The position numbers and the translations under genes were made by a program. A DNA stretch of 64,000 nt from Escherichia phage A4. The notes below the pieces were generated by a model. It did not search any database and was not told the origin of the DNA. It saw only the letters and a program-made list of their open reading frames with translations. The stretch is taken from sequence record ON286972. The stretch is one strand, 5' to 3'. Below are positions 19,204 through 39,589 of this stretch, one piece after another (within the stretch, counting starts at the first letter, position 1; every line of letters begins with the position of its first letter).

Positions 19204-19599
19204 ATGATTACTAAATTCTACGCTACCCGTGAAGCTGCCCGTATTGTTGCACGCGAGGAAGGAGCAGCATTTAAAGACATGGGCACGACCGCACCGAAAG
19301 GTCAACGCTGGGCCGTACAGTTCAAAGAAATCTCTGATATTGTGAATTCACCTGAGCCAGTACTGACAGCAGCAGAACAGAAGAAAGCTGATGAACTGTC
19401 AGCAGTACTTAACGCTCAAGATGAATTTATCGCTGGTTCTGATATTAAAGTACAGGTAAATTCGAATGCATGGACTCACGCGGATCACCTGGCTAACCTG
19501 AAGCGTCCAAGTGAACTGATTCGCAACAAACGAGAGATCCGTCATGACCGCAAGGGAAACCGTGTTACCGTATACAGTAAACGCCGCCAGGTTATCTAA
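19204..19599 (+). CDS. hypothetical protein, paralog of gene at 7237
   Basis: MITKFYATREAARIVAREEGAAFKDMG...HDRKGNRVTVYS. Confidence 0.65.
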   Translation: MITKFYATREAARIVAREEGAAFKDMGTTAPKGQRWAVQFKEISDIVNSPEPVLTAAEQKKADELSAVLNAQDEFIAGSDIKVQVNSNAWTHADHLANLKRPSELIRNKREIRHDRKGNRVTVYSKRRQVI

Positions 19600-19621
19600 T
19601 AACTTGCAGTACTAACAACAC

Positions 19622-19646
19622 GGCGGGATCAGTTCCCGCCTTTTTT
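19622..19646 (+). terminator. rho-independent terminator
   Basis: Stem GGCGGGA/TCCCGCC, loop TCAGT, then TTTTTT. Confidence 0.7.
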
Positions 19647-19661
19647 ATAGGATAAACTAAA

Positions 19662-19916
19662 ATGATTAAGGTACAACTATCTAAAGATAATATCTTGCGG
19701 GTACACTATAAAGCCCCACAGAGAATCATCACAAAGGCCGTACAGCTTGCTAATGAGTTTATTAATGGTAATCTATTACCGAGGAAGTTAAGCAACGGAA
19801 AACTGCGTGTAATCGACGTGGACACCAACAACAGAATAGTAATCGAGAATACCGGAAAGATAAACCTATATGAACACCAACAATATAATAAGAAAATAAA
19901 ACTAATATCACGTTGA
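19662..19916 (+). CDS. hypothetical protein
   Basis: 84-aa ORF; SD TAGGA. Confidence 0.65.
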   Translation: MIKVQLSKDNILRVHYKAPQRIITKAVQLANEFINGNLLPRKLSNGKLRVIDVDTNNRIVIENTGKINLYEHQQYNKKIKLISR

Positions 19917-19970
19917 CAGTACTCAAATGTTTTAGTACTATGTATCTATACCAACACGGGGAGTAACAAA

Positions 19971-20189
19971 ATGAATTTATCTAAAGTCGAAAAGAAAACT
20001 ATTGATGTAGCTATCCAACATGGTTACACCTTTCGTAATGATTCACATTTTACCAATTTTCAACAAGGCCAACGAACTATTAAAAAACTAATTGACAAAG
20101 GTTTATTAGTTAAAGTAGATAACGGTAACGGCGTGGAGTATCAGCCAACACAAGACGCATTATCTTTAAAGAAATATGCAATTATCTAA
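19971..20189 (+). CDS. hypothetical protein
   Basis: 72-aa ORF; TTGACAGTACT promoter element and SD GGGGAG upstream. Confidence 0.65.
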   Translation: MNLSKVEKKTIDVAIQHGYTFRNDSHFTNFQQGQRTIKKLIDKGLLVKVDNGNGVEYQPTQDALSLKKYAII

Positions 20190-20254
20190 TTGACAGTACT
20201 CAAATGTTTTAGTACTATATGTACATACCAACACGGAATAACTGGAGAAACAAA

Positions 20255-20482
20255 ATGATTAATATCTTAGAACGCATCAAAGAAACTACTACGCTGGTGG
20301 ATCTACTCAATGTACTGACTTTTAAAGTAACTCGGTTTAGTACTCCTGAATTTATCAACCTCATTGATAGTAAAGGTGAATACCGCATCACTATTGAAAA
20401 TGGTCGTGCTAATGTATTCAGTACTAAATCAGGTAAAACCGCAATTCATTCAGTAATTGCAAATAAAACTGTTGCAATCTAA
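20255..20482 (+). CDS. hypothetical protein
   Basis: ATG 20255 after TGGAGAAA SD; upstream region duplicates that of 19971. Confidence 0.6.
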   Translation: MINILERIKETTTLVDLLNVLTFKVTRFSTPEFINLIDSKGEYRITIENGRANVFSTKSGKTAIHSVIANKTVAI

Positions 20483-20551
20483 TTAGTACTAACATATAAT
20501 AGTCACATCAAGGCAGGGAATACCTCCCTGCTATCTTAAAGAGTAAATGCA

Positions 20552-21136
20552 ATGCGTAATTATACTAAATTCATCCGTACACTGGGAGAAATGGAAACTA
20601 ACAAAGAGATCCTTACAGCTTGTCGGTTGGCTGGTCTGGAGATCATCGGGGCCGGATCATCCCGTATCGTATTCGCTTTAAATGATCGGTTAGTGATTAA
20701 GGTCGCTAATTGTGACGCTGGCGTAGAACAAAATGAAACAGAATGTAAGGTATGGAATTTTTTAGATTATGACCGCCCTCACCTTAAACAGTACTTTGCA
20801 AAGGTGCATATGCATTTATGCGATCCTGATAATATGTTTATCGTTATGGATCGGTTGAGTACTGCAAGTAAAGGCAGTGTAAAGCACGTAAACGCGTGCA
20901 ATGAATTAAAGTACAATATTAAACGTAATGCCATTGAACGCCAGCACCGCTTTGCTGATGCACTACAACACGTTGATGATACATTATCAACACTAACGAT
21001 AAGAGATATCAGAAAACAGAATATCGGCCAGGATCGTAATGGCCTTATTAAAGTACTTGATTACGGTTTAACCCGCAATATCTGGAATCAGTACTATAAA
21101 AAGCGTGATGTAGAAGCAAGTAAGGTAACACGATAA
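20552..21136 (+). CDS. putative protein kinase-like protein (minimal kinase fold)
   Basis: IGAGSSRIVF (Gly loop), VIKV (Lys), DIRKQN (catalytic-loop-like), DYG (DFG-like) in kinase order. Confidence 0.45.
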   Translation: MRNYTKFIRTLGEMETNKEILTACRLAGLEIIGAGSSRIVFALNDRLVIKVANCDAGVEQNETECKVWNFLDYDRPHLKQYFAKVHMHLCDPDNMFIVMDRLSTASKGSVKHVNACNELKYNIKRNAIERQHRFADALQHVDDTLSTLTIRDIRKQNIGQDRNGLIKVLDYGLTRNIWNQYYKKRDVEASKVTR

Positions 21137-21145
21137 AAAAGATTA

Positions 21146-21231
21146 AAAAAGGGATTGACTCCGGTCAGTCCCTTTGCTATTATATATTCATTGAGAGATA
21201 ACTCACTGACCCATAGGGTGCGGAAGTGTAT
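21146..21231 (+). repeat. composite hairpin/promoter/conserved-box module, copy 3
   Basis: Hairpin GGGATTGACTCCGGTCAGTCCC 21151-21172, TATTAT, box CCCATAGGGTGCGGAAGTGTATC. Confidence 0.55.
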
Positions 21232-21359
21232 CTATTATATAAGTATTCAGTACTGAAAACTATTTGATAAAAAGTACTTGCATTGTACTTAGAATCAAGT
21301 ATAATGTTTTATATCGAGAGGGGGAAATGGTTCTCCCTGGTACATTAAGGAATAAAATC

Positions 21360-21581
21360 ATGACTACAATGACTTGCATTCACGCTTCAAACCTGCTTAA
21401 TGATGCGGCCTTTAATGTTGATTCAGAATATCAATGTTATCGGGATGAAAATAAAAAAGTTTTTGTAGTTGATAATAATGGTTTCCATATTGAATTACAA
21501 TCCGGTTTCACTGGTGTTGATGGTAAATCAGTGTGGGGCGTACAGGATGATAAAGGCACATATCATTTTAAACGTAATTAA
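21360..21581 (+). CDS. hypothetical protein
   Basis: ATG 21360 after TAAGGAATAAA; class A promoter and hairpin upstream. Confidence 0.65.
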   Translation: MTTMTCIHASNLLNDAAFNVDSEYQCYRDENKKVFVVDNNGFHIELQSGFTGVDGKSVWGVQDDKGTYHFKRN

Positions 21582-21667
21582 GTATTGACAAAGTATATCA
21601 TCAGTACTGTATAATAGTTTACATCAAGGGGAGAATAGTTCTCCCCAATACAATAAGGAATAAAATC

Positions 21668-22075
21668 ATGTCTACTACTACTAATCTCGCTCGGAACATC
21701 ACTAACGATAAAAATCATGCTGCAATGGTTGTAGCTTACATTGAAGCTATGCAATTCAGTACTGTACATAATGATAACGGCGATTACCTGGAAGATTATG
21801 AGTTATCTGATGAAGCACGTCAAGCGGCGGTGATTGCATGTTCTCGCTTCATTGAGAAACACGGTAATGATCTGGAAGTAGTTCGCGGTATGTTTATTGA
21901 TTACGGTTATGAGCAAGCTGGTCATGATCTGTTCCTTACCCGCGAAGGTCACGGAACTGGTTTTTGGGATCGTGGTTTAGGTCACTATGGCGATGTATTC
22001 ACGAAGTACTGCGAAGAAATCAACGTTTGCGATCCCTATGTAGGCGATGATAACTTAATCTATATGGGCGAATAA
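21668..22075 (+). CDS. hypothetical protein
   Basis: 135-aa ORF; promoter and GGGGAGAATAGTTCTCCCC hairpin upstream. Confidence 0.7.
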   Translation: MSTTTNLARNITNDKNHAAMVVAYIEAMQFSTVHNDNGDYLEDYELSDEARQAAVIACSRFIEKHGNDLEVVRGMFIDYGYEQAGHDLFLTREGHGTGFWDRGLGHYGDVFTKYCEEINVCDPYVGDDNLIYMGE

Positions 22076-22164
22076 AAGTATTTGACAAAGTATATCAGTA
22101 CTGTATAATAGTTTACATCAAGGGGAGAATAGTTCTCCCCACACCAATAAAAGGAAACAAAATT

Positions 22165-22437
22165 ATGTCCAGCTACTCCGCTACTATGATCATTAAAGAT
22201 ATGAACGGTAATCCTACTTCTGCTGGTGGATCATTTGGAAACATTAATTTAGATGGTCGGTTATCCATGCAATCAGCCATCGATGCAGCGAAAGAAGTTT
22301 TTAAGAATGAATGTACTGTTAGTAAGCTGGATTATATGGGATTCGCTATCGAGAAAACTAATCGTTTTGTGAACTACAAAAATCCACTGATGATTGATAC
22401 TAACCTGAAAGCTAACGAAGTGGGGTACTTATTATGA
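22165..22437 (+). CDS. hypothetical protein
   Basis: 90-aa ORF; SD AAAGGAAA. Confidence 0.7.
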   Translation: MSSYSATMIIKDMNGNPTSAGGSFGNINLDGRLSMQSAIDAAKEVFKNECTVSKLDYMGFAIEKTNRFVNYKNPLMIDTNLKANEVGYLL

Positions 22438-22625
22438 CAGTAGAAGAAGTTAAAAAAGTACTGGCAGTACTACGCTATCATAATCATTGCAAGGTGAAGA
22501 ATGATCCTGATTATGTTGATTCATCCCTGGAGGAAGACACATTAAACGCAATAAGCCATATGCAAACATTAGCAAAGCGTATGACCGAAAAGAATAGACC
22601 GGACTATATCGGAAATAAAATTTAA
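22434..22625 (+). CDS. hypothetical protein
   Basis: ATGA overlap with upstream gene; 63 aa. Confidence 0.6.
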   Translation: MTVEEVKKVLAVLRYHNHCKVKNDPDYVDSSLEEDTLNAISHMQTLAKRMTEKNRPDYIGNKI

Positions 22626-22711
22626 AAAGTACTTGCATTGTAGTTAGATTAACGTATAATGTTTTACATAGAGCGGGGGAATAGTTCTCCCGCCAGTCCA
22701 GGAGATACACC

Positions 22712-22975
22712 ATGAACACTATCGAAATCACTATCAATGCACACGTATACGACAACGTAGCACTGCAAACTACTATGACCGCTAATGATACCAGTACTTT
22801 GCGGAATACTGTTATTAGTGCCGTATGTGCTGCAATCGGTGATGTCGCCCTGGAAAATGCAAAACACGTAAACGATGGTTTCACTATGTGCAAACGTGAT
22901 AACGCAAAACATATCATCGTGGAAGGTTACGGCGGTGTAGAATTTAATGTTTATATGAAAAAAGTACTTGCATAA
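22712..22975 (+). CDS. hypothetical protein
   Basis: 87-aa ORF; promoter and GCGGGGGAATAGTTCTCCCGC hairpin upstream. Confidence 0.7.
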   Translation: MNTIEITINAHVYDNVALQTTMTANDTSTLRNTVISAVCAAIGDVALENAKHVNDGFTMCKRDNAKHIIVEGYGGVEFNVYMKKVLA

Positions 22976-23042
22976 TAACTAAAACAAAGTATAATGTTTT
23001 GCATAGGGGGAGATATCCTCCCCCACTAAAAGGAGTAATAAA

Positions 23043-23267
23043 ATGGCTAACTTTGATGAACTGATGCGGGAAGTAGCTAACCTGGCAGAAGAGAAGAAAT
23101 CATTCGATTCTATCTATAACACCGCTCACCGTGATTCAGTACTGGCATGTAACCAGGATCAAAAAGATGAACTAATCGCCACCTATCATGAAGCATGGAA
23201 GTACTACCGACAATGGGAGAAAGAAGAAAGAGAGTCTACCATTGACGGCCTCAATAATCTAATCTAA
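23043..23267 (+). CDS. hypothetical protein
   Basis: 74-aa ORF; hairpin GGGGGAGATATCCTCCCCC upstream. Confidence 0.7.
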   Translation: MANFDELMREVANLAEEKKSFDSIYNTAHRDSVLACNQDQKDELIATYHEAWKYYRQWEKEERESTIDGLNNLI

Positions 23268-23343
23268 AAGTTTTATTTCAGTACTATTGACATAGCTTGA
23301 TAGTACTGATGTAATAACTTTACTAACTACAAGGGGAAACATA

Positions 23344-23601
23344 ATGGATCAATTCACACAATATCGGGTAAATCCTCAAGCTATGGCCTACGTAGAAGAC
23401 CATAAAACGTTACCAGTACTGCAACCAGTTAAAGGCCATATCTATCGTGCAATGTCGTGGAGTGCGGCCCAGGATGGCTATAAAACCGTAGCCGTGGGTA
23501 TGTATTGCGGTAATGGTGAATGGTTTGATCCAAATAATCCGGTAGCCATTGACAGTACTGAAAAAATGAAATGGGCCGACTACATCGAAGATATTTCATA
23601 A
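23344..23601 (+). CDS. hypothetical protein
   Basis: 85-aa ORF; class B-type promoter at 23287-23315. Confidence 0.65.
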   Translation: MDQFTQYRVNPQAMAYVEDHKTLPVLQPVKGHIYRAMSWSAAQDGYKTVAVGMYCGNGEWFDPNNPVAIDSTEKMKWADYIEDIS

Positions 23602-23691
23602 AAACTATTTGACAGTACTACAAGATAATGTATAATGTTTTACATAGAGCGGGGGAATAGTTCTCCCGCCAATAGTTTGGAGTTAAACATT

Positions 23692-23892
23692 ATGTCTATC
23701 GCTATCGCCCTGGTTGAAGTACTGAAAGAAGCTAAAGCCAACCTTATCGATGTACAGATTAAGGAATTGCAAAACGGCTTAATCGGCTGTACTTGTACCG
23801 CTGGTGGAGCGGCAGACTATCGAGAACACGAATCACTCGAATCACTGGTTCGGTATCTTACCATGATCGTTGATGATTGGAGAATCATCTAA
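23692..23892 (+). CDS. hypothetical protein
   Basis: ATG 23692 after TGGAG SD. Confidence 0.6.
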   Translation: MSIAIALVEVLKEAKANLIDVQIKELQNGLIGCTCTAGGAADYREHESLESLVRYLTMIVDDWRII

Positions 23893-23904
23893 CAAAAAAG
23901 AATA

Positions 23905-23986
23905 AAAAAGGGATTGACTCCGGTCAGTCCCTTTGCTATTATATACGCATAGACAAAAACTAGCCCACAGGGTGCATAGGTGTATC
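23905..23986 (+). repeat. composite hairpin/promoter/conserved-box module, copy 4
   Basis: Hairpin GGGATTGACTCCGGTCAGTCCC 23910-23931, TATTAT, box AGCCCACAGGGTGCATAGGTGTATC. Confidence 0.55.
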
Positions 23987-24137
23987 CAAAATATATAGTT
24001 AATAACGGTGAGTAACTATCTGCTGGTGGGGTGAAAACTATTAATAAAAAAAGTATTGACAAAGTATATCAGTACTGCAATAATGTATCTCGTAGGGCGG
24101 CAATGGTGCGACGGCCCACAAAGTTAGGAGATTCAAA

Positions 24138-25479: not shown

Positions 25480-26298
25480 ATGCAGATTACCCGTTGTGGA
25501 AGAACCTTCCACTACATGGAGCCTAAAGATGTACAGATGATATACACTGTTCATAATAAGAAAACTCCAAACTTTTATATAAATGAAATTAAGAATAAAC
25601 ATAAAGATTTAAAAATATACGGTTATAACATAACATCATCTAATGAGTTCAACGGTAACAAAACACTTGTTCTTTATGAATTAAAAGGTGTATTACTTAC
25701 AGCTTCAGCAAATCAATTGATGAAGTCAAAGGATATATCAAGAATTCGTTACCGAGATGATGATATCGTTTACGTCACTAATTGTATATTGTTAAACGAA
25801 GGAAAAAATATTAGGTGTACTGGTTTTACACCAGGAAAACAAACTAAAAATACAACATATGGAAATCATGAATGTCATTTGGTGTGTGATGATTGTAATA
25901 GGGAATGGTCAAAACTTATTACAAATATTGTATCAGATGACAGAGAAACCTTTTGTTATTGTGCACAAAGAATATCTTTTAAGGGTAAATGTGCAGCTTA
26001 CTTTTATGTTAATAAATTCACTTATAATGGTGAAACTGTTTACAAATATGGAATAGCTCACAACACAATCAAAAGACGCACACTGTTCAAAAACAATAAT
26101 GGATTAGACTCTGAAGAAATCATAGCTGTACTGTTTGAAAACTCATTGGAAGCTGCTGATCTTGAAGACATGTTGAAGTATACTAATTTAATTAATCATA
26201 TGCGTCATGTTAAAATAAAAGATGGCTGTACTGAACTCACCGATGAAGCTGGACTAAAATTTATTATGGAAGAACTTACTTACATGGGTAAGCTTTAA
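25480..26298 (+). CDS. hypothetical protein with Cys/His cluster and possible GIY-YIG-like segment
   Basis: 272 aa; HECHLVCDDC...FCYC cluster; FYVNK...YKYGIAHNTIKRR loosely resembles GIY-(10-11)-YIG...R. Confidence 0.6.
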   Translation: MQITRCGRTFHYMEPKDVQMIYTVHNKKTPNFYINEIKNKHKDLKIYGYNITSSNEFNGNKTLVLYELKGVLLTASANQLMKSKDISRIRYRDDDIVYVTNCILLNEGKNIRCTGFTPGKQTKNTTYGNHECHLVCDDCNREWSKLITNIVSDDRETFCYCAQRISFKGKCAAYFYVNKFTYNGETVYKYGIAHNTIKRRTLFKNNNGLDSEEIIAVLFENSLEAADLEDMLKYTNLINHMRHVKIKDGCTELTDEAGLKFIMEELTYMGKL

Positions 26299-26301
26299 CA
26301 C

Positions 26302-26330
26302 TTGACATCATGCCTCGTATGGGGTATGAT
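26302..26330 (+). promoter_or_regulatory. sigma70-like promoter at head of family B array
   Basis: TTGACA 26302-26307, 17 bp, TATGAT 26325-26330. Confidence 0.6.
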
Positions 26331-26364
26331 GTTTTTTCATATATGAACCTATGGAATTTGCCCT

Positions 26365-26562
26365 ATGCGTATTTTAACACAAGAAGAGCATCACGAAAGA
26401 CTTATCAATAACATGGCTATGATAATGTATAAGTCTCATAAACGTGGTAATGCCTATAAACGTGAATTAGTTATGGAACTATTCTTAGGAACTAACTTAC
26501 AAAATGAATATGTTAAACTATATGTAAAAGAGTTATGTTTAGAGATAAATGGTAAACTATGA
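26365..26562 (+). CDS. hypothetical small protein, paralog family B
   Basis: motif FLGTNLQNEY. Confidence 0.65.
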   Translation: MRILTQEEHHERLINNMAMIMYKSHKRGNAYKRELVMELFLGTNLQNEYVKLYVKELCLEINGKL

Positions 26563-26759
26563 AAATGCGTACATTAACCCAAGATGAATATCATCATATA
26601 CTACGTAAAAACACGGCAAGGATTTACCAAAGCAATGTGCATTTAGAAAGAGTTGAGTTGTACCTGTTGATTACGATGGGAACCAACTATCAGGAAGTGT
26701 GGGTAACTCACTATTTGGAATCTTTGAAAGCTGACATACGAGCGAGGTGCAAACATTGA
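26559..26759 (+). CDS. hypothetical small protein, family B
   Basis: ATGA overlap; motif TMGTNYQEVW. Confidence 0.65.
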   Translation: MKMRTLTQDEYHHILRKNTARIYQSNVHLERVELYLLITMGTNYQEVWVTHYLESLKADIRARCKH

Positions 26760-26965
26760 AAATCATAACACAGACACAAGCATTTGGTCGTATATTGAAA
26801 TACCTTGATGACATGATAGATATACATAGTGACCTCCCTAAAACTGTAATCTACGCCAAAAGAGCAGAATATCGCATGATGGCTGTACTGAACACAAACT
26901 TTCAGGAAGAGTATGTAAATGATTGGATTGGATTTTTAATTGAAGATATAAAGAGTAAACTATGA
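26756..26965 (+). CDS. hypothetical small protein, family B
   Basis: Probable TTG start (GTG at 26747 possible); motif VLNTNFQEEY. Confidence 0.5.
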   Translation: MKIITQTQAFGRILKYLDDMIDIHSDLPKTVIYAKRAEYRMMAVLNTNFQEEYVNDWIGFLIEDIKSKL

Positions 26966-27174
26966 TTATATTAACACCAGAGCAATATAGGAAACGTTAC
27001 AATTCTAAGCAGATTGAAATCTTGCTGATATATGCAGACAGGGATGATGTATACTTATCAAAAGTTATGGAAAAAGAATTACTTATGGGTGTCTTCTTAG
27101 GAACTGACCACCAGAAATCTTATGTCCAAGAGTATCTAATAGCTCTTGAGAAATACATCAGGAGTAAACTATGA
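26962..27174 (+). CDS. hypothetical small protein, family B
   Basis: ATGA overlap; motif FLGTDHQKSY. Confidence 0.65.
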   Translation: MIILTPEQYRKRYNSKQIEILLIYADRDDVYLSKVMEKELLMGVFLGTDHQKSYVQEYLIALEKYIRSKL

Positions 27175-27395
27175 ACTGCATTAATAACTTTGAATACGAG
27201 GCTCGCTCAAGGTGTGCATCTCAAAAAGAGAACCACATTTACTTCACTATGATGTACTTATCTTGGAATGAAATTGAAGAAATGGTTGCTGAAGTATGGC
27301 TGTTTGAATTCATGGGGACGCAGTATCAGAATAGGTTTGTGGGTGAGTATCTTAATGTTCTTATGAAACATATAGAAAGAAAGGGAATGAACTAA
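27171..27395 (+). CDS. hypothetical small protein, family B
   Basis: ATGA overlap; motif FMGTQYQNRF. Confidence 0.65.
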   Translation: MNCINNFEYEARSRCASQKENHIYFTMMYLSWNEIEEMVAEVWLFEFMGTQYQNRFVGEYLNVLMKHIERKGMN

Positions 27396-27646
27396 TGAAA
27401 GTATTATCAAGCACTGAGTATCAATCTGCCCTATTCTCTTTACTAAACACCCTTCGCAAGAACAATGAACTTTATCCTTCCCCTGAGAATGATGTAGTTA
27501 ATGGTGACGTGTTTCTTCTTAAATTCATTGGAACTAATAAACAAGATACCTTTACTGATCGTTATATCAATGCACTAAGAAACCTTGTAGCGTATAAAAC
27601 CCGCCAGGCCAAAAGAGAATGGAAGAGACAATGCGATCCAGAATAA
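27395..27646 (+). CDS. hypothetical small protein, family B
   Basis: motif FIGTNKQDTF. Confidence 0.65.
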   Translation: MKVLSSTEYQSALFSLLNTLRKNNELYPSPENDVVNGDVFLLKFIGTNKQDTFTDRYINALRNLVAYKTRQAKREWKRQCDPE

Positions 27647-27879
27647 ATCACATTATGTACGTTAAACTATTTCAGAAACTAATCCACAAACACTATGATA
27701 CAGTATCTGATAAACTCACTAATGATATCAGCAGACTTATACACTGTGAAGCAGAGATGCTTGTACTGATGACGGGAGACGATACACAAACAATCTCTAA
27801 GGCAATAGAGAACTATCTGGAAGCATATCAACAACATATAAGAACGGAAGTCTGGAGACGAGAGAATGAAAATCCTTAG
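27631..27879 (+). CDS. hypothetical small protein, divergent family B member
   Basis: ATG 27631 after GGAAGAG; motif degraded to LMTGDDTQ. Confidence 0.5.
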   Translation: MRSRINHIMYVKLFQKLIHKHYDTVSDKLTNDISRLIHCEAEMLVLMTGDDTQTISKAIENYLEAYQQHIRTEVWRRENENP

Positions 27880-28081
27880 TGGGTATGAATATTACAGTCT
27901 GTTGCGAACTATACAAGCAAAAGTTTCTAGTATTTCTTTAGACAAATCTATTGCACAAGTGGACAAATGTGTTATAATAACTGAAATGAAGCTATCTATC
28001 TTCATTGGGACAAACTATCAAAGCATCTACACTGACGCATGGTTAGCAAGTCTACGTAACAAGGTGATATCCAGAGAATGA
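27866..28081 (+). CDS. hypothetical small protein, family B
   Basis: motif FIGTNYQSIY. Confidence 0.65.
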   Translation: MKILSGYEYYSLLRTIQAKVSSISLDKSIAQVDKCVIITEMKLSIFIGTNYQSIYTDAWLASLRNKVISRE

Positions 28082-28296
28082 AAAAATTACAAGGTTTTGA
28101 ATATATTAAGCTTCTTCAAACCTGTGAAATCCAAAGAAGAAAGATTCAAAAGGCTAAAAGAATTACCGCAGAACGAAAGTTTACACTGATAACTGAAGTC
28201 TATGTATTAAAACTCTTAGGCACAAACCATCAACACAAGTATGTAGACCTATGGATTGATGCACTCCAGAAAGAGGTTAAAAGTAAATGCAAATGA
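28078..28296 (+). CDS. hypothetical small protein, family B
   Basis: ATGA overlap; motif LLGTNHQHKY. Confidence 0.65.
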   Translation: MKKLQGFEYIKLLQTCEIQRRKIQKAKRITAERKFTLITEVYVLKLLGTNHQHKYVDLWIDALQKEVKSKCK

Positions 28297-28511
28297 TTAA
28301 TTTAAGTAAAGATGAATATTATGTACGTCTTGCAAAAACTTATTCATTACGCAAGGCCATTTATGAAAGTCACATTATTGAACAATCAAATAAGTGGATT
28401 GTAGTAAATGAGATCAAGATGCTTTCAGTCTTAGGAACAAACTATCAAGCGAGTGCTGTACTGAAGGTCATTAATGCACTTCAAAATGAGGTCCAAAGTA
28501 AATGCAAATGA
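28293..28511 (+). CDS. hypothetical small protein, family B
   Basis: ATGA overlap (alternative ATG 28287); motif VLGTNYQASA. Confidence 0.6.
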   Translation: MINLSKDEYYVRLAKTYSLRKAIYESHIIEQSNKWIVVNEIKMLSVLGTNYQASAVLKVINALQNEVQSKCK

Positions 28512-28765
28512 TTAATTTAAGTAAAGATGAATATAACGAGCGACTAGCAAAAATCTCACCTAAACGTAATGCAATCTATCACAGCCAAGAAATTCAACAC
28601 AGTAAGAAGATGATTATGTTTCGTGAGTTAAAGATGGGTGTCTTCTTAGGAACAAACTATCAAGAGACAGAAGTAAATCGCGTCATAACCGAGTTACTCA
28701 TGGAAATCAGAGGTAAGCTGTACTTTCATCAAATGACCCAACCACTGAGGTGTAATGAGAAATGA
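28508..28765 (+). CDS. hypothetical small protein, family B
   Basis: Start junction identical to that of gene 28293 (recent duplication); motif FLGTNYQETE. Confidence 0.6.
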   Translation: MINLSKDEYNERLAKISPKRNAIYHSQEIQHSKKMIMFRELKMGVFLGTNYQETEVNRVITELLMEIRGKLYFHQMTQPLRCNEK

Positions 28766-28998
28766 ATAAAATTAATAACATCAACTTAGCAGAAAGATTT
28801 GATAGAATTGGGGAAGCTCTGAGAAGATACGATAAAGCATATGGTCATTTAAGCTTTACCATAGAAACGAGATATGCCCTTGAAGAAGAGTTTAAAATGC
28901 ATAGTCTCTTAGGCACACAGTATCAAAAACAATATGTTCAAAAATGGATTGAATGTTTAATCCAAACAATTCATGTGAGGAACATAAAATGCAAATGA
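28762..28998 (+). CDS. hypothetical small protein, family B
   Basis: ATGA overlap; motif LLGTQYQKQY. Confidence 0.65.
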   Translation: MNKINNINLAERFDRIGEALRRYDKAYGHLSFTIETRYALEEEFKMHSLLGTQYQKQYVQKWIECLIQTIHVRNIKCK

Positions 28999-29243
28999 TA
29001 TACTTAACAGACGATGAAATAAAAGAAAGAATAATTAAATCCAGAAAACATACAAATCAACTTCCAAAAGACCCAAACCAAACCCCTGCTGCAAGGAGTG
29101 CAGAAGTATTATATCAACAACTCCTGTACTTTCTTGGAACTGATAGACAGGATTATTATGTTCGATCGATTCTTAGATATCTTAAAATGACTATTCAGGA
29201 AAAGATACATGACCAAATATATAAAAATCTTAACAGTCAATGA
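28995..29243 (+). CDS. hypothetical small protein, family B
   Basis: ATGA overlap (alternative ATG 28989); motif FLGTDRQDYY. Confidence 0.6.
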   Translation: MIYLTDDEIKERIIKSRKHTNQLPKDPNQTPAARSAEVLYQQLLYFLGTDRQDYYVRSILRYLKMTIQEKIHDQIYKNLNSQ

Positions 29244-29460
29244 ATATCATAAGATTATCATGAAGACTAATAGTGCAATTTCTAAAAAATCAAACCCCAA
29301 GTACATTCTGGAACACACATTTGAAGAACGACAATTAGCTTTAGTTGAAGCAAAACTTCTTGCACTATTAGGGACTAACTATCAAGACGAGTACGTAAGA
29401 AAACTAATATACCTTTTAACTAAACACATCAGGAAAAGAAATGCTGCACTTGACAAATGA
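29209..29460 (+). CDS. hypothetical small protein, family B
   Basis: motif LLGTNYQDEY. Confidence 0.6.
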   Translation: MTKYIKILTVNEYHKIIMKTNSAISKKSNPKYILEHTFEERQLALVEAKLLALLGTNYQDEYVRKLIYLLTKHIRKRNAALDK

Positions 29461-29671
29461 CGAATACGGTGTTATCATCCTTGATGTTATCAATAAAGAA
29501 TACCATAGGAAACAACGATACGCTTGTTATGAAGATAAACAGCTTTCTATAGCTGAACAACAATTAGTTCATTTATTAGGAACAAACTATCAAGAACAAT
29601 GCACTGAACGTTACCTGTACCTACTGTCGAGGAAAGCAAAAAGAGATTATGAAAATTTTAAACGAAGGTGA
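29441..29671 (+). CDS. hypothetical small protein, family B
   Basis: motif LLGTNYQEQC. Confidence 0.6.
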   Translation: MLHLTNDEYGVIILDVINKEYHRKQRYACYEDKQLSIAEQQLVHLLGTNYQEQCTERYLYLLSRKAKRDYENFKRR

Positions 29672-29864
29672 TGAAGTAATATTACTTATAGAGAATTCAA
29701 GTAAATTCTTAAACATATCACTGTCTGATATAGATGAAGATGACAAAGAAGTACTGAGAGCAGATTTAAGAGTACTGTTACATCTCGGAACAAACCTACA
29801 AGAACAATTTGTTGAGGACTACATCGATGAACTTAAAGAATCAGTACTGAGAAGATGTAAATGA
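29649..29864 (+). CDS. hypothetical small protein, family B
   Basis: motif HLGTNLQEQF. Confidence 0.6.
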   Translation: MKILNEGDEVILLIENSSKFLNISLSDIDEDDKEVLRADLRVLLHLGTNLQEQFVEDYIDELKESVLRRCK

Positions 29865-30103
29865 AAATGAAAATCCTTTCAAGCACAGAATACAACCAAC
29901 TATTAAGTAGTTTAATTCCAAAGTTGCATCGTAGCTGGTCAGCAGAATTATCACAGGATGAAAAAAATATTCTAATAAGTGAAATCTATGTTCTAGCTAC
30001 TATAGGAACTAACTATCAAGAACACATCATAGTGGATTATATTAATACACTCAAAAGGGTAATACAATTAAAATGCACAGACAGCACATACACAAACCCC
30101 TAG
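29861..30103 (+). CDS. hypothetical small protein, family B
   Basis: ATGA overlap; motif TIGTNYQEHI. Confidence 0.65.
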   Translation: MKMKILSSTEYNQLLSSLIPKLHRSWSAELSQDEKNILISEIYVLATIGTNYQEHIIVDYINTLKRVIQLKCTDSTYTNP

Positions 30104-30303
30104 GAACAGCAGAATACATTGAACTAATGGCAGCAAACTTCTCATCCTTTCAGAAACTGAGGCAAGAATCAAATAATGATTTAGAATATCATATCAAAAG
30201 TTCAGATTTAAGATTGTTACTCACTCTAGGAACAGACAGTCAGTACAAATTCGTACAGGAGCATATTAGAGCACTTTTAAATGGCATCAGGAATAAACTA
30301 TGA
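30073..30303 (+). CDS. hypothetical small protein, family B
   Basis: motif TLGTDSQYKF. Confidence 0.6.
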   Translation: MHRQHIHKPLGTAEYIELMAANFSSFQKLRQESNNDLEYHIKSSDLRLLLTLGTDSQYKFVQEHIRALLNGIRNKL

Positions 30304-30515
30304 AGGAAATATCAAACCAAGAGTACTTAGAACTATTCAGAAAAAATAAGAACGAATATATGGCACTTGATACAAGAACTGATATAGGGGAACTTGAAAA
30401 AAATCTTTTGCGTTCAGAGATGATAGTACTGACACTCTTAGGAACACAGCACCAAGAGAGAACTGTTAATTCACACATAGAAATACTTAAGAAGCTTATA
30501 CAGGAAAAGATATGA
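30300..30515 (+). CDS. hypothetical small protein, family B
   Basis: ATGA overlap; motif LLGTQHQERT. Confidence 0.65.
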   Translation: MKEISNQEYLELFRKNKNEYMALDTRTDIGELEKNLLRSEMIVLTLLGTQHQERTVNSHIEILKKLIQEKI

Positions 30516-30733
30516 GAATCATAACACAACAAGATATTCTTAAGTTCACAAGGGTTCATGCATCTGAATTTGATGCTATATTATCAAAAAGTTACAACAA
30601 CCCTTATACAGAAGATGTACACTACAGTGAATTATGGGTGTATATACTTTTAGGTACAGATCATCAAGAGCAAGCAGTACAGAAGTATTTGTTAGCTTTA
30701 CGTGATGCTACTGCTAATGGAGTAGGTGTTTAA
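30512..30733 (+). CDS. hypothetical small protein, family B
   Basis: ATGA overlap; motif LLGTDHQEQA. Confidence 0.65.
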   Translation: MRIITQQDILKFTRVHASEFDAILSKSYNNPYTEDVHYSELWVYILLGTDHQEQAVQKYLLALRDATANGVGV

Positions 30734-30735
30734 AA

Positions 30736-31077
30736 ATGAAAACTAATATTCAACTCAAGGTATACATATCGTATGAAAATATATACATCAAAAGTAGTCT
30801 ATGTAAAGATGTAATGGACTACAAAGGTAAGCCATTCACAGTTACTTACAGTTCTACAGGAGGTTTATATATATCTTTTGCTAATTACGAAAATAATATG
30901 TACGAACACATTGACATTGAAGATTTAAGTACTTTATCAGAAGAGGAATACTTTCAGGAATCATTAGTCTGGGATTTAGAGTTTCCTATGCCATTAGTAC
31001 ATAAAATGATAGTACTAATAAAAGAAACTAAACAGGAGCCTCGTGATAATTATGAAGAACACATTATTGAGTATTAA
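30736..31077 (+). CDS. hypothetical acidic protein, paralog family C
   Basis: motif EEEYFQESLVWD. Confidence 0.65.
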   Translation: MKTNIQLKVYISYENIYIKSSLCKDVMDYKGKPFTVTYSSTGGLYISFANYENNMYEHIDIEDLSTLSEEEYFQESLVWDLEFPMPLVHKMIVLIKETKQEPRDNYEEHIIEY

Positions 31078-31089
31078 GAGTACTGAACC

Positions 31090-31320
31090 ATGAAAAGATT
31101 ATCATTCGAAGAGTACTGCAAGCTTATTAATACTTTACAACCACAAATACAACAAATAAATTCTCTTCCTATACCCCAAGAAGAACGTGCAGTACTGAAA
31201 GATGAGTTAATTTTAAAATGCACAGTAGGTACTAACTATCAAGCTGATAGTGTTCGTTATCTAATTTGGGGTTTAATGTGCATAATAGAGAACAAAGCAG
31301 TTGACAGTACTCTAATGTAG
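31090..31320 (+). CDS. hypothetical small protein, family B
   Basis: motif TVGTNYQADS. Confidence 0.65.
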   Translation: MKRLSFEEYCKLINTLQPQIQQINSLPIPQEERAVLKDELILKCTVGTNYQADSVRYLIWGLMCIIENKAVDSTLM

Positions 31321-31359
31321 TGCTATAGTACTTCTACGTTCTAATATAGGGTACAGATT

Positions 31360-31605
31360 ATGTTAAAATTTTTAAATTTCCTTATCGTCTTGTGTATTGT
31401 TCTTGGGATTGCACCGTTTGTATTAGCGTATCTGGATTCAGATGAAATGCACAAGATGAATTGCACAAAGACAGGACAGAGTAGAAAAGAGACGGTTATG
31501 ATGCCCGTAACGGTTATTGTGAATAATATGCCGATTACGAACATGATTCCTACCCTAACGACAACGTATCAGTACTCTTGCGATGACGGAGAGAGGTGGA
31601 GATGA
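31360..31605 (+). CDS. small predicted membrane protein
   Basis: N-term LKFLNFLIVLCIVLGIAPFVLAYL hydrophobic helix; 81 aa. Confidence 0.55.
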   Translation: MLKFLNFLIVLCIVLGIAPFVLAYLDSDEMHKMNCTKTGQSRKETVMMPVTVIVNNMPITNMIPTLTTTYQYSCDDGERWR

Positions 31606-31931
31606 CACGTAAATTCAATTGTATTGTCAGAGATAAAATCTGTTTCATTGCGTTGTCCAATTTCCAGAGCAATTCTGGGGTTAAGGTATTTGAGTACAAT
31701 AAAGTTGATAATTGTTTCTATTGGGTAGACGGTGTAAAATCCACAGGAAACAAGATTGCAGTACCGAATCTAGTTGATATCTCTGAAGAAGAAGAGTTTC
31801 AGTACAGTTTAGTACATGATGATTCTTTTGGATTTACGTTCAATGAAATGAAGGAAGTACAAAGGCAGATGATATCGTATAGTAATCTTCCAAAGCATTT
31901 CATACAAGATGTGCATAGAATTGTAATATAG
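31596..31931 (+). CDS. hypothetical acidic protein, family C
   Basis: motif EEEEFQYSLVHD. Confidence 0.65.
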   Translation: MEMTRKFNCIVRDKICFIALSNFQSNSGVKVFEYNKVDNCFYWVDGVKSTGNKIAVPNLVDISEEEEFQYSLVHDDSFGFTFNEMKEVQRQMISYSNLPKHFIQDVHRIVI

Positions 31932-31938
31932 GGGATAT

Positions 31939-32274
31939 ATGAAATTCAACATTCACCGAATTAATTCCGGTTGTATATTTGCTTATACGCATGAGAATTA
32001 CAAGAAGTACATGAATCATGAAGTACATTATGTTTTCGAGGACGGTAAAGAATATTTTGCTTATTTGAGTCCCAGGAGTTTAGGTAAGTACGAGTTGCTT
32101 CAGGATCTTTCTCTTATGCAGGAAGATGAATTATTTCAGTACAGTCTAATTCATGACCCTTATATGTTTGATATAGATATTATGTGCAGTTTACAGAAGA
32201 GGATGAAAGAAGTTTGGGATTCGATTAAAAGAGGTGATTGTATAGAATATGATAGTATACAAGAAGATGCCTAA
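31939..32274 (+). CDS. hypothetical acidic protein, family C
   Basis: motif EDELFQYSLIHD. Confidence 0.65.
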   Translation: MKFNIHRINSGCIFAYTHENYKKYMNHEVHYVFEDGKEYFAYLSPRSLGKYELLQDLSLMQEDELFQYSLIHDPYMFDIDIMCSLQKRMKEVWDSIKRGDCIEYDSIQEDA

Positions 32275-32467
32275 CGGATATGAATTGAAGTACAGACATT
32301 TTATTCGAAATGTAGAATCAGATCCTTTTAATGTTAAAATGGCAGAGTTCGATTTATTATTTTATCTAGGAACGAGAGCACAGCCACAATTCGTTGATGC
32401 ATACATAAGGGCTTTACGAACAGAGATAGTATGCACACCAAAGGAGTCTAAATGTACAAAAATGTAA
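32249..32467 (+). CDS. hypothetical small protein, family B
   Basis: motif YLGTRAQPQF. Confidence 0.6.
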   Translation: MIVYKKMPNGYELKYRHFIRNVESDPFNVKMAEFDLLFYLGTRAQPQFVDAYIRALRTEIVCTPKESKCTKM

Positions 32468-32709
32468 ACCATCATTTGTACGCATCAAAGTACAGGGATT
32501 TTTGTTTACAAGGGGGCGATGAAGATTTTGCTTTGCGATTATCGGAATTTAATATGTTATTTTATCTTGGTACATCAGTACAAGAAGAAATGGTACAGAA
32601 ATTTATCAAGCACCTTGAACGAAAAATTCATACGCAAATTTTGGTTGTTAAGTTACAGAATGAGATAAATGAATACAATGCAGAATCTAACAGTAGTACA
32701 GGATCTTAG
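32452..32709 (+). CDS. hypothetical small protein, family B
   Basis: motif YLGTSVQEEM. Confidence 0.6.
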   Translation: MYKNVNHHLYASKYRDFCLQGGDEDFALRLSEFNMLFYLGTSVQEEMVQKFIKHLERKIHTQILVVKLQNEINEYNAESNSSTGS

Positions 32710-33070
32710 ACCAGTAATAATGATGTTAAATGCAAGACGAGATTTATGGCACGAAATGCATAACAACAAGGATTCATTTGCACAAATCAATTTAGTCTTT
32801 CAGGAGTTAATCCAGAGTGCATTGGATGTTATAGTACCAAAATACAAAGATGGTATATTCTGTGTAAAGAATGCAGTTCGTCCTCATGCAATTCCAAGGA
32901 AAATTAAGTTAGCCAGATTAACATTTGACGAGAGGGATTTCTTCAGTTATAATCCCAGTACAGCTTTATATTTTATTCCTGATTCAGACAAATATCATCC
33001 TATCCATTACGGATGGATTATGTCGTATGTAGTGAATGAAACGGAATACCCTATTAAATGGGAAAGATGA
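32669..33070 (+). CDS. hypothetical protein
   Basis: 133-aa ORF; only weak LVFQELIQS resemblance to family C. Confidence 0.5.
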   Translation: MNTMQNLTVVQDLRPVIMMLNARRDLWHEMHNNKDSFAQINLVFQELIQSALDVIVPKYKDGIFCVKNAVRPHAIPRKIKLARLTFDERDFFSYNPSTALYFIPDSDKYHPIHYGWIMSYVVNETEYPIKWER

Positions 33071-33255
33071 TGATAGATGCAAAGACATTAAATGCATTAA
33101 ATGCATTACAGGATTCATTATTAGATAGTATTAAGCTGTATTACAATATGCATTTGAGGGGTGGTATCAATGATTACAATTATTATTTGAGTGTAATTAT
33201 ATTTGAGCATCTTTCAGTACAGGATAGAATTTTACACAAGTACAAACATTATTGA
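33067..33255 (+). CDS. hypothetical small protein
   Basis: ATGA overlap; 62 aa. Confidence 0.5.
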   Translation: MMIDAKTLNALNALQDSLLDSIKLYYNMHLRGGINDYNYYLSVIIFEHLSVQDRILHKYKHY

Positions 33256-33266
33256 GGAAACAAAAT

Positions 33267-33617
33267 ATGTTCAATAAAATCATGTTCATTTTAACATTTG
33301 TGTTTTTATCATTTATAAACACCGCACATACAGCACAGGCATCATCGGATGTACCGTTATATGAAACATACAAATTTGATTGCAGATTACAGAATAATGA
33401 AATAATCAATATCTTTTTACACAATACAGAAGTACCTTATTTGCAGATTGAAGCAACGAAGTACATGTATTATGGTACGAATTCAGTACAGGAATTTTTA
33501 TTCAAACACACCAATCAGGATGTAATTATATCATTGCAGTACGTTGATAGTTCATTGTCTTTAATGCATTTCAAGAATGCAGAGGGATTAGTTACAGTGC
33601 TCAAATGCTATAGGTAA
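33267..33617 (+). CDS. predicted secreted protein (signal peptide) with family B-like GTNxxQ segment
   Basis: MFNKIMFILTFVFLSFINTAHTAQA signal-like N-term; YYGTNSVQEF echoes family B motif. Confidence 0.6.
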   Translation: MFNKIMFILTFVFLSFINTAHTAQASSDVPLYETYKFDCRLQNNEIINIFLHNTEVPYLQIEATKYMYYGTNSVQEFLFKHTNQDVIISLQYVDSSLSLMHFKNAEGLVTVLKCYR

Positions 33618-33623: not shown

Positions 33624-34139
33624 ATGAATGAAATTGAATTATTAACGCACAAGATTAGTACAATAATGCTTATGCTCAAAAATAATCATCCTATACATAA
33701 GTACATTGATATAGATGAATTACGCATAGAAGATAGGCATGGTAAATTATCGTTTATGTTTCACAATGCAAATAATGCAGGGAATGTTAACGTTTGTATT
33801 GCAGCATTTACCCAAGCCAATCCAGTACAAACATCTCCTGTTGTATACGAAAATAAAGAAGGGTATTTGTGGGTAAACACAAACGATTATTTCTTTTATG
33901 ATTTGAAACAAGATGATGAAGTAGAAGAACGAATTGATTTAATTGATATTAGTACAGATTGTAGTGCTGAATTATTTCAGAAATCGTTATTATATAGTCC
34001 TCGTCAAATGCATTATCTAAAGTTATTCAGTTCATTGTACGCGAATCCTTTAATTAAGGGTTTTAAATTTTATATAAAAGTTCCTGACATTCAAGCAGTT
34101 TATGATATTTTGATGCAAGGATATAGTTATGAAGTATAA
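33624..34139 (+). CDS. hypothetical acidic protein, family C
   Basis: motif AELFQKSLLY. Confidence 0.65.
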   Translation: MNEIELLTHKISTIMLMLKNNHPIHKYIDIDELRIEDRHGKLSFMFHNANNAGNVNVCIAAFTQANPVQTSPVVYENKEGYLWVNTNDYFFYDLKQDDEVEERIDLIDISTDCSAELFQKSLLYSPRQMHYLKLFSSLYANPLIKGFKFYIKVPDIQAVYDILMQGYSYEV

Positions 34140-34437
34140 AATGCTTTATACAAAAGATATGATTTATGTTGAATTAGAAGGCGATGAAGACGGTTGGAAT
34201 TTGATTTATTCAAGTAGTTCAGGTTGGTACATGGCACATTTAAATGATAACGAAGTTACAGATTATTTTGTAGATTTCAATACATTATCAGACGAAGAAT
34301 TGTTTCAACAGCAATTAGTGATTGACACGGGTGGTTATGATGTGTTATTATTAAAAAAGATACAGAAAGCTGTTATGAATTTTAATGCCCAAGTATCCGA
34401 ATGGGAAAGGAAATATTATGACCTCGAAGTACAATAA
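34129..34437 (+). CDS. hypothetical acidic protein, family C
   Basis: motif DEELFQQQLVID. Confidence 0.6.
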   Translation: MKYKMLYTKDMIYVELEGDEDGWNLIYSSSSGWYMAHLNDNEVTDYFVDFNTLSDEELFQQQLVIDTGGYDVLLLKKIQKAVMNFNAQVSEWERKYYDLEVQ

Positions 34438-34786: not shown

Positions 34787-35253
34787 AGAGTGCTGTACAG
34801 TACGTTAAGTACATTGAAGGTGTATACAATATAATGAAAGCATATGAAGGAAAAGGATATGCTTCAATAAATCACAAATATGATTACATCAACAATCAGT
34901 TAGAAGAATCAAATTCAGGTAAAGTGCTTTTTAGTTTTTTATATTTTGCTCCTGACAATGTATATCCTGATGAAGATGATCTTCGTCTGGATAGAGATGA
35001 CCTGTGGTATATGTATCCAGGACGTGATAAGCCAATGGATGATGCTTTGTTGGAAATCAAATACAGTACAGAACCATTGACACCGGAGTTGTGGTTCCAG
35101 TACAGTACAATACATGAAGAAATTGATATCTTTTTCTACGCAATATACAAGATGCTTTATGAGAATGGTGTGCTTAAGAATCATGTATATTTTTATTTCC
35201 AGCAAATGAAAAATGTATATGAGTCCTTTTACCCAACCGAGCCTGTATCGTAA
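34756..35253 (+). CDS. hypothetical acidic protein, family C
   Basis: motif PELWFQYSTIHEE. Confidence 0.6.
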   Translation: MQKCKVEFSLESAVQYVKYIEGVYNIMKAYEGKGYASINHKYDYINNQLEESNSGKVLFSFLYFAPDNVYPDEDDLRLDRDDLWYMYPGRDKPMDDALLEIKYSTEPLTPELWFQYSTIHEEIDIFFYAIYKMLYENGVLKNHVYFYFQQMKNVYESFYPTEPVS

Positions 35254-35278
35254 GATATGGGCTTTTTTCGTTTTGGTA

Positions 35279-39418: not shown

Positions 39419-39588
39419 TGCTTAAAAAAGAACAAATGGAATCATTAATGAATGCAGTTATTCGTCGTTTTGTTAAAGACATTAGTCATAAAAACTGTAT
39501 TACAAATGACAGGTACGGTATAGAATTGTATATAGCTAATATTCACATGGCGTACAGAGAATATATTAAGACACGTCACAGGGGTTGA
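39418..39588 (+). CDS. hypothetical small protein (56 aa)
   Basis: ATGA overlap; hand-translated MLKKEQMESLMNAVIRRF...TRHRG. Confidence 0.45.
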   Translation: MLKKEQMESLMNAVIRRFVKDISHKNCITNDRYGIELYIANIHMAYREYIKTRHRG

Positions 39589-39589
39589 A

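Follow-up and report, generated by a model that had tools for sequence, protein, structure and literature searches.

A clade-restricted tandem array of small paralogs with a predicted four-helix fold beside the terminal repeat of an Asteriusvirus-like coliphage

We analysed a 64,000-nucleotide (nt) stretch of Escherichia phage A4 (record ON286972), hereafter called the window, in which positions 26365-32709 of the + strand are filled with open reading frames (ORFs) of 65-96 amino acids (aa). An earlier note, made from the letters of the sequence alone, had described this block as a tandem array of about 25 small paralogs sharing an invariant motif. The family is real, and 23 of its members (22 robust and one divergent) lie within the block, all on the + strand, or 25 if a distal pair is counted. 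The array is, however, broken by four unrelated ORFs, three of which belong to PHROG 13866. The ORFs are listed below with the residues at the motif position, any overlap with the previous gene, the E value of the leave-one-out profile search and, where given, the E value of the match to PHROG 4148.

26365-26562, +, member 1, 65 aa, FLGTNLQ; E 7.6e-10; PHROG 4148 E 6e-15
26559-26759, +, member 2, 66 aa, TMGTNYQ, ATGA overlap; E 2e-16
26747-26965, +, member 3, 72 aa, VLNTNFQ, GTG start, 13-nt overlap; E 5e-10
26962-27174, +, member 4, 70 aa, FLGTDHQ, ATGA overlap; E 1e-12
27171-27395, +, member 5, 74 aa, FMGTQYQ, ATGA overlap; E 9e-12; PHROG 4148 E 9e-22
27395-27646, +, member 6, 83 aa, FIGTNKQ, TAATG overlap; E 6e-10
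27631-27879, +, member 7, divergent, 82 aa, MTGDDTQ; E 0.82; hhalign 67%
27866-28081, +, member 8, 71 aa, FIGTNYQ; E 3e-16
28078-28296, +, member 9, 72 aa, LLGTNHQ, ATGA overlap; E 9e-19; PHROG 4148 E 5e-20
28293-28511, +, member 10, 72 aa, VLGTNYQ, ATGA overlap; E 1e-19; PHROG 4148 E 7e-23
28508-28765, +, member 11, 85 aa, FLGTNYQ, ATGA overlap, the modelled protein; E 6e-21; PHROG 4148 E 3e-27
28762-28998, +, member 12, 78 aa, LLGTQYQ, ATGA overlap; E 1e-12
28995-29243, +, member 13, 82 aa, FLGTDRQ, ATGA overlap; E 3e-9
29209-29460, +, member 14, 83 aa, LLGTNYQ, 35-nt overlap; E 3e-15
29441-29671, +, member 15, 76 aa, LLGTNYQ, holds an internal promoter-like site; E 3e-12
29649-29864, +, member 16, 71 aa, HLGTNLQ, acidic (isoelectric point 4.4); E 2e-15
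29861-30103, +, member 17, 80 aa, TIGTNYQ, ATGA overlap; E 6e-17; PHROG 4148 E 1e-18
30073-30303, +, member 18, 76 aa, TLGTDSQ; E 1e-12
30300-30515, +, member 19, 71 aa, LLGTQHQ, ATGA overlap; E 9e-18
30512-30733, +, member 20, 73 aa, LLGTDHQ, ATGA overlap, ends the uninterrupted run; E 1e-13
30736-31077, +, interrupting ORF, non-member, 113 aa, PHROG 13866
31090-31320, +, member 21, 76 aa, TVGTNYQ, without ortholog in four compared phages; E 2e-11
31360-31605, +, interrupting ORF, non-member, 81 aa, PHROG 8826
31596-31931, +, interrupting ORF, non-member, 111 aa, PHROG 13866
31939-32274, +, interrupting ORF, non-member, 111 aa, PHROG 13866
32267-32467, +, member 22, 66 aa, YLGTRAQ; E 1e-9
32452-32709, +, member 23, 85 aa, YLGTSVQ; E 5e-10; PHROG 4148 E 1e-5
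42494-42721, +, distal member 24, 75 aa, FLGTNYQ, ATGA overlap with an upstream 177-aa ORF; non-training E 3.5e-10; PHROG 4148 E 1.5e-11
42712-42918, +, distal member 25, 68 aa, YIGTQYQ, GTG start; non-training E 1.9e-10

We built a family profile from the 23 array members and searched it against the 743 six-frame ORFs of the window. The profile recovered every array member as well as two ORFs outside the training set, 42485-42721 and 42688-42918, each with an E value of about 1e-10, which independently confirms the two extra members that the earlier note had placed at 42494-42918. No further member was found among the 743 ORFs, the next best E value being 0.7. Leave-one-out profiles recovered 24 of the 25 members with E values from about 1e-9 to 6e-21. 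As the earlier note had proposed for the G-T-x-x-Q form, the G-[T/S]-x-x-Q motif keeps one position in the alignment: among the 25 window sequences T49 never varies and conservation reaches at least 90% at G48, Q52 and L63, and the column entropies over 141 members from five phages are 0.06 bits for T49, 0.22 for Q52, 0.31 for L63 and 0.68 for G48. The motif is kept in three lineages (Asteriusvirus, a metagenomic contig and RaK2), with its two middle residues varying freely. The N-terminal L-(S/T)-x-x-E-Y segment, also pointed out previously, is conserved at L4, E8 and Y9 across the same 141 members.

The member not recovered by the leave-one-out search is member 7 (E 0.82), which has TGDDTQ at the motif position, where the orthologous proteins of four other phages have MTGTDK. 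We counted it as a divergent member because the profile of its ortholog group aligns in register with the rest of the family along its entire length (hhalign 67%, E 5e-5, 67 columns). The signal-peptide ORF at 33252-33617, which had been suggested to carry a variant of the motif, was rejected as a member: it shares only the letters GTNSVQ and matches neither the family profile, even at E 10, nor PHROG 4148. The latter is the sequence cluster of the family, matched by all ten members tested with E values from 1e-5 to 3e-27, most of them over their full length, and matched as well by a 121-aa protein of RaK2/K64-1 and a fusion protein of phage UB; member 7 did not match it.

Among the first 20 genes, all 19 junctions overlap and none has an intergenic gap. 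The proposed chaining by 4-nt ATGA overlaps holds for 11 of these junctions, whereas the other eight consist of one TAATG and seven overlaps of 13-35 nt. Most members have their own Shine-Dalgarno sequence inside the preceding gene, and anti-Shine-Dalgarno pairing of -4 kcal/mol or lower is found at 15 of 24 start codons, compared with 16% of random positions. No convincing + strand terminator was found between 26334 and 35239, and a hairpin just beyond is the probable end of the array transcription unit. The promoter-like and terminator-like elements are as follows.

26302-26330, +, head promoter-like site, TTGACA-17-TATGAT, 35 nt 5' of member 1
26304-26343, +, 13-bp hairpin followed by a T-run, terminator-like, overlapping the head promoter
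29450-29478, +, internal promoter-like site, TTGACA-17-TATCAT, within member 15
31301-31329, +, third promoter-like site, TTGACA-17-TATAGT, upstream of the ORF at 31360
35239-35274, +, terminator-like hairpin with an 11-bp stem and T-run, the first strong one past the array

The overlaps, the Shine-Dalgarno pairing and the lack of a + strand terminator before 35239 support a tightly coupled operon, and the array is probably a tightly packed, translationally coupled early polycistron. This agrees with the coupled polycistron of diversified paralogs that the earlier note had pictured, except for its single strong promoter. The head site is real and matches 11 of the 12 sigma-70 consensus positions, but the two further sites inside the array match equally well. 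Every array ORF is intact in the five phages, and the ratio of nonsynonymous to synonymous substitutions (dN/dS, or ω) is below 1 for most ortholog pairs; together with the gapless junctions, the pairing and the missing terminator, this indirectly supports expression of all members.

We scanned the window for sites with no more than one mismatch to the 12 sigma-70 consensus positions and found 34 on the + strand and four on the - strand, with 2.5 expected from shuffled sequence. The head element is also present in PBECO4, and a different element, TTGACT-16-TATTAT, takes its place in 121Q, ELP-22 and G17. The second and third sites are kept at orthologous positions despite the diverged surrounding sequence: the third is conserved in all five phages, and the TTGACA and 17-nt spacing of the internal site are kept in 121Q, ELP-22, PBECO4 and G17, always 171 nt ahead of the start of the next member. 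For the internal site the argument from conservation is confounded, because its TTGACA also encodes a conserved Leu-Thr and is thus under protein constraint. In the head promoter, the -35 hexamer falls in one arm of the 13-bp hairpin and the -10 hexamer in the other, as they do in PBECO4, and the segment 26302-26343 could both terminate upstream transcripts and start the array transcript.

The highest Kyte-Doolittle 19-residue window is at most 1.26 in every member, with no hydrophobic segment, and on this measure the family proteins are soluble. Their isoelectric points (pI) range from 4.4 to 9.9 and their net charges from -8 to +10. About 12 of the 25 members have a pI of at least 9, as might be expected of nucleic-acid-binding regulators, that is, small DNA or RNA binders expanded to tune phage or host transcription. 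The early region would offer such regulators many promoters, and lineage-specific expansions of transcription factors have a precedent in jumbo phages: in Bacillus phage G, about 35 zinc-ribbon genes and Myb-type helix-turn-helix factors have been expanded (PMC7824862). The likeness lies in the multiplication of one small domain to high copy number in a given jumbo-phage lineage; the domains of phage G, however, are recognisable nucleic-acid-binding folds, whereas the present family has no detectable relative. Eight members are acidic or neutral, down to a pI of 4.4 and a net charge of -8, and no Pfam family, helix-turn-helix and other DNA-binding families included, drew a match from more than one member with the threshold relaxed to E 10. 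We consider this explanation improbable.

Other searches for relatives gave no lead. The PDB sequence search with the family profile returned nothing below E 1, no structural relatives outside the family were found among solved or viral structures, and PADLOC, which is not a dedicated anti-defence library, gave only isolated single-member matches at chance level. Two candidate readings were rejected. Homology to Hha/YmoA, for which an N-terminal L-T-x-x-D/E-Y-x-x-R-L likeness had been the lead, reached only 3.7% in hhalign over just 16 residues, with no match to PF05321, and a helix-turn-helix reading of L-G-T-x-x-Q found no Pfam or structural support.

The structure prediction proposed in the earlier note as a check for a common small fold gave a confident answer. 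The AlphaFold2 model of member 11, for which the input alignment held only the 25 window paralogs, has a predicted local distance difference test score (pLDDT) of 94.9 and a predicted template modelling score (pTM) of 0.77. It contains four helices (6-15, 17-24, 31-45 and 52-77), and its N-terminal residue bridges to T49. The divergent member 7 was modelled with a pLDDT of 86 and has three long helices, as in the model of member 11. The members are thus predicted to share a four-helix fold, in which a short N-terminal strand (M-x-x-L-S/T) is predicted to pair with the G-[T/S]-x-x-Q turn. Drawing on established knowledge of helix capping, we read the motif as a Gly helix stop and, directly after it, an S/T-x-x-Q N-capping box from which the long C-terminal helix would begin; the retention of the motif across lineages with free middle residues fits this reading. 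Read as a capping box, the motif would therefore be fold-determining and non-catalytic. The conserved positions 56, 59/60, 63 and 67 of the last helix follow a heptad-like stripe, which we read as buried, and the positions most variable among orthologs lie on the opposite face of that helix and in the 25-27 loop. The polar positions conserved family-wide are E8, E40, T49, Q52 and K70.

The conserved N-terminal M-x-x-L-(S/T)-x-x-E-Y could also be taken for a capsid-targeting signal, by which the proteins would be packaged in the inner body and injected like the internal proteins of T4. Both 121Q and phAPEC6 possess an inner body (PMC5646251; PMC7247149). Yet the N-terminus is an integral strand of the predicted fold, and the promoters are of the sigma-70 early type. 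Literature data on phAPEC6, a related phage, list none of the array products (gp461c-485c) among 62 virion proteins identified by mass spectrometry, even though one protein of 4.7 kDa was picked up. Packaging is hardly credible in our view, the least so of all explanations considered.

A megablast search of positions 26000-33000 against phage genomes matched 35 records (121Q, PBECO4, SP27, G17 and others), all of them jumbo phages of Escherichia or Salmonella that belong to the Asteriusvirus group, with 80-84% nucleotide identity and at most 76% coverage; for 121Q, PBECO4 and SP27 the identity is about 81%. Because of this identity and coverage, we take the window, on the basis of nucleotide comparison, to be from a new and fairly divergent relative of the Asteriusvirus-group phages of about 350 kb. 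The genes beneath the matches are all annotated as 'hypothetical protein'. The array has no match in complete E. coli genomes; the nearest protein in a large collection, 99% identical, is located on a 359-kb contig of an 'E. coli' assembly.

By tblastn, the family was not found outside the 35 Asteriusvirus-type records. An exhaustive profile search of 1.84 billion cluster representatives yielded only 97 clusters, nearly all of 52-96 aa, and those traced belong to Asteriusvirus-like contigs, phage JNE01 and Klebsiella phages of the RaK2/K64-1 type. Array copies number 23 in the window, 25 in 121Q, 29 in ELP-22 and 31 in both PBECO4 and G17; a divergent 101-kb metagenomic contig has at least 16 copies, 12 of them in tandem, and RaK2 has about five scattered copies directly downstream of a promoter-dense stretch. 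As far as these searches reach, the family is restricted to this phage clade, comprising Asteriusvirus-like phages, RaK2-type phages and the divergent metagenomic lineage. The PHROG 4148 entry is a sequence cluster only, without function, structure, array organisation or genomic position. In the literature we found the function and organisation of the family undescribed, with only generic remarks on paralogs and tandem duplication. The RaK2 paper states that about 10% of RaK2 genes are paralogues and nothing further on the family. Hua et al. (2017) mention tandem arrays in 121Q as a route of genome expansion in one sentence without coordinates (PMC5646251). Their arrays are 'very similar' and from the same genus, whereas the family described here has a mean identity of about 27% and 25 copies in the 121Q array; their remark may refer instead to the 'DNA condensation' paralogs of about 41 kDa (phAPEC6 gp003-010, 549 and 551). 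What was known before is the PHROG 4148 cluster and lineage-specific expansion of viral genes as such.

The family domain is also found fused to other domains. A 269-aa protein occurs in phage UB and 13 contigs, and fused forms of 115-133 aa occur in RaK2 (11956-12366 and 15639-15992) and in the metagenomic relative (12370-12771). An extension of about 50 aa is similar between the two RaK2 fusion proteins and the metagenomic protein; the C-terminal 200 aa of the phage UB fusion gave no informative family and have no relative in the window. Domain fusion bears on the main rival among the explanations we weighed, according to which the paralogs are an adaptor family. A conserved face (E8, E40, G-T-x-x-Q and K70) would dock all of them on one common partner, such as the host RNA polymerase, a protease or a phage enzyme, and the variable face or a fused C-terminal domain would recruit substrates. 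Such a role accords with the attachment of the domain to unrelated C-terminal domains, with several polar residues that are near-invariant in 141 sequences and across three lineages, and with the co-expression of all copies from one unit, predicted from the junctions and the absence of an internal terminator. Structure, in the form of the capping-box turn and the heptad-like buried stripe, would however suffice to account for the conservation, K70 may be fixed by the downstream ribosome-binding site, and the hub protein remains hypothetical. We judge an adaptor role unlikely, although nucleic-acid binding, neutral filler and packaging are less likely still.

The setting of the array was examined in related genomes. 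The two ends of the G17 record form an exact direct repeat of 20,668 bp. About 100 bp inside the repeat boundary comes the first family gene of G17, oriented away from that boundary. In fEgEco12, a terminal repeat of 20,993 bp was verified by restriction digests (PMC13070987), and the record has a family member at 23.9 kb. These records place the start of the array some 100 bp inside the direct terminal repeat of about 20.7 kb, amid host-type promoters. The counterpart of the G17 terminal repeat in the window spans about 4414-25390, with 92-95% identity. The physical end of the G17 genome maps to about 4414 of the window, and the window therefore runs across the genome end of an assembly that was collapsed or circularly permuted; the sign of the GC skew flips near position 4000.

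We compared orthologs among the five phages to follow the history of the array. About 18 ortholog groups are colinear in all five and about eight are variably present. Within the window the closest paralogs are only 28-53% identical, and because no pair exceeds 53% the duplications must be old. A recent amplification of the 'genomic accordion' kind was rejected, there being no near-identical tandem copies. At the level of sequence, these comparisons show a clade-specific multigene family whose 25 window copies derive, as far as identity can date them, from old tandem duplications. Against G17, the array orthologs have medians of 0.216 for dN, 0.47 for dS and 0.37 for ω, whereas 40 similar-sized genes of the adjacent terminal repeat have 0.026, 0.21 and 0.13 (Mann-Whitney p values of 3e-8, 1e-3 and 3e-6, respectively). 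The array dN is thus eight times that of its terminal-repeat neighbours, and the substitution rates show the array orthologs to be under purifying yet clearly relaxed selection. Among adjacent array genes dS against G17 ranges from 0.03 to 2.2, about 70-fold, and three terminal-repeat genes (21668-22622) are 100% identical to G17. Both this spread and the identical genes look like a sign of recent mosaic recombination or exchange among these phages.

Relaxed selection raises the question of whether the copies are near-neutral filler, that is, tandem duplicates tolerated by a large capsid, with no specific function for single copies. Copy number does differ between phages, ω is three times that of the neighbouring genes, and tandem arrays have been named as a genome-expansion route in 121Q, as cited above. 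All copies, however, retain intact ORFs, fold-defining residues and ribosome-binding sites, and ω at 0.37 is well under 1. Orthologs are colinear across phages although paralogs are only about 30% identical, and the family persists in three diverged lineages. We regard filler as very improbable.

The earlier note had given the function as unknown. The description can be narrowed to soluble proteins that are absent from one virion proteome, probably immediate-early, clade-restricted and fast-evolving. The reading that we tentatively prefer, without placing it above an even chance, is that the paralogs are immediate-early proteins built on one scaffold with different surfaces, each binding a different host protein for takeover or anti-defence. 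The host RNA polymerase would transcribe the array immediately after DNA entry, and the genes would be translated as a coupled chain. Each paralog would display a different surface on the common scaffold, as the spread of pI values may reflect, and would bind and neutralise a different host protein, either a takeover target or a component of anti-phage defence. The rise from about five copies in RaK2-like Klebsiella phages to 23-31 in coliphages would then be a broadening of the target repertoire.

The closest functional analogies, for which no homology is claimed, come from two groups of viruses. The MGF110/360/505 families of African swine fever virus (ASFV) and the Bcl-2-like and ankyrin families of poxviruses are terminal multigene families with a demonstrated role in immune evasion. 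The array shares the traits of such families: it consists of diverged tandem paralogs beside a terminal repeat, shows copy-number polymorphism and evolves faster than its neighbours. Small helical scaffolds with varied surfaces are a further likeness. The viruses, however, belong to another realm and their proteins to other folds, with no sequence or structural kinship, and immune evasion is only inferred for the phage family. The second group is formed by phage gene blocks for early host takeover that lie within terminal repeats or next to them, namely the pre-early genes of T5, the host-takeover module of SPO1 and the Tre genes of Kayvirus. These resemble the array in their small, packed operon genes, their strong host-type promoters and their position at the genome end that enters first; they consist mostly of unrelated genes, whereas here a single fold is multiplied 25-31 times.

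A bolder form of the preferred reading, which we hold to be doubtful, is a counter-immune repertoire: a previously unseen four-helix scaffold would have been multiplied 25-31 times, and within minutes of infection every copy would disable an E. coli target of its own, either a defence protein or a housekeeping one. If true, bacterial viruses would have their own equivalent of the terminal multigene families of ASFV and poxviruses, and the diversity of host defences would be mirrored in the expansion from about five copies in Klebsiella phages to about 30 in coliphages.

Several points weigh against host-directed immediate-early proteins. E8, E40, T49, Q52 and K70 could form a shared functional site and not be purely structural, and the domain fusions would suit a module docking to a common partner. 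K70 and the C-terminal K-L or K-C-K may reflect constraint from the ribosome-binding site and ATGA start of the next gene. The fold model was built from no more than 25 sequences, all of one genome, and the virion mass spectrometry that listed no array product can miss small, low-abundance proteins. Most paralogs are old, kept in every compared phage and have ω below 1, which is less like a fast-turnover anti-defence island; retention at such ω would sooner be expected of early housekeeping functions that form a stable set.

Few phage families reach 25-31 paralogs, and in this one a single fold fills 6 kb of early-gene space, placed where host-takeover and anti-defence genes are expected. With about 30 small proteins per phage and natural variants in more than 35 sequenced genomes, the family is a compact, well-defined set for screens, from which new inhibitors of E. 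coli proteins or of defence systems might emerge. It also offers a way to ask whether paralog expansion gives phages their immune-evasion repertoires, as it does in large eukaryotic viruses. Even if the proteins were ordinary regulators, about 5% of the genes in phages used for phage therapy would be annotated.

Other small-gene families lie near the array. A second paralog family (PHROG 13866 and related groups), of about 100-115 aa and with an EE(E/L)FQxSL(V/I)xD motif, is interleaved with the array and trails it; besides the three interrupting ORFs of PHROG 13866 (30736-31077, 31596-31931 and 31939-32274), its members include 34129-34437 and, more weakly, 33624-34139. Before the terminus, at 508-4139, eight small + strand ORFs of 69-83 aa stand in tandem and are linked by BLASTP as a third small-gene family. 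About 45 + strand ORFs of 140-210 aa occupy 35300-61400, where BLASTP links small subsets only (for example, 39536-41439 with 47245-48212); larger families may exist among these ORFs at the level of profiles.

The following ORF is inserted precisely at the point where the terminal repeat gives way to the array.

25480-26298, endonuclease-like ORF, 272 aa, PHROG 681 'endonuclease' (E 3e-10)

It is missing from this spot in G17, 121Q and ELP-22, and by its match and placement it looks like a mobile homing-endonuclease insertion. The terminal-repeat equivalent at 4400-25400 contains, exclusively on the + strand, about 20 TTGACA-N16/17-TATAAT sites that are perfect or nearly so and are densest at 8000-24000. 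Many of these sites have a GC-rich hairpin 5-15 nt downstream (for example, after 16791, 17364, 18457 and 22109), an arrangement that would give every small gene of the terminal repeat a promoter and a 5' stem-loop of its own. For window positions 19662-19913, the aligned gene of the metagenomic relative (3046-3297, 74% nucleotide identity) has a precomputed Pfam match to ParE_like, a hint that the terminal repeat may include a small toxin-like gene.

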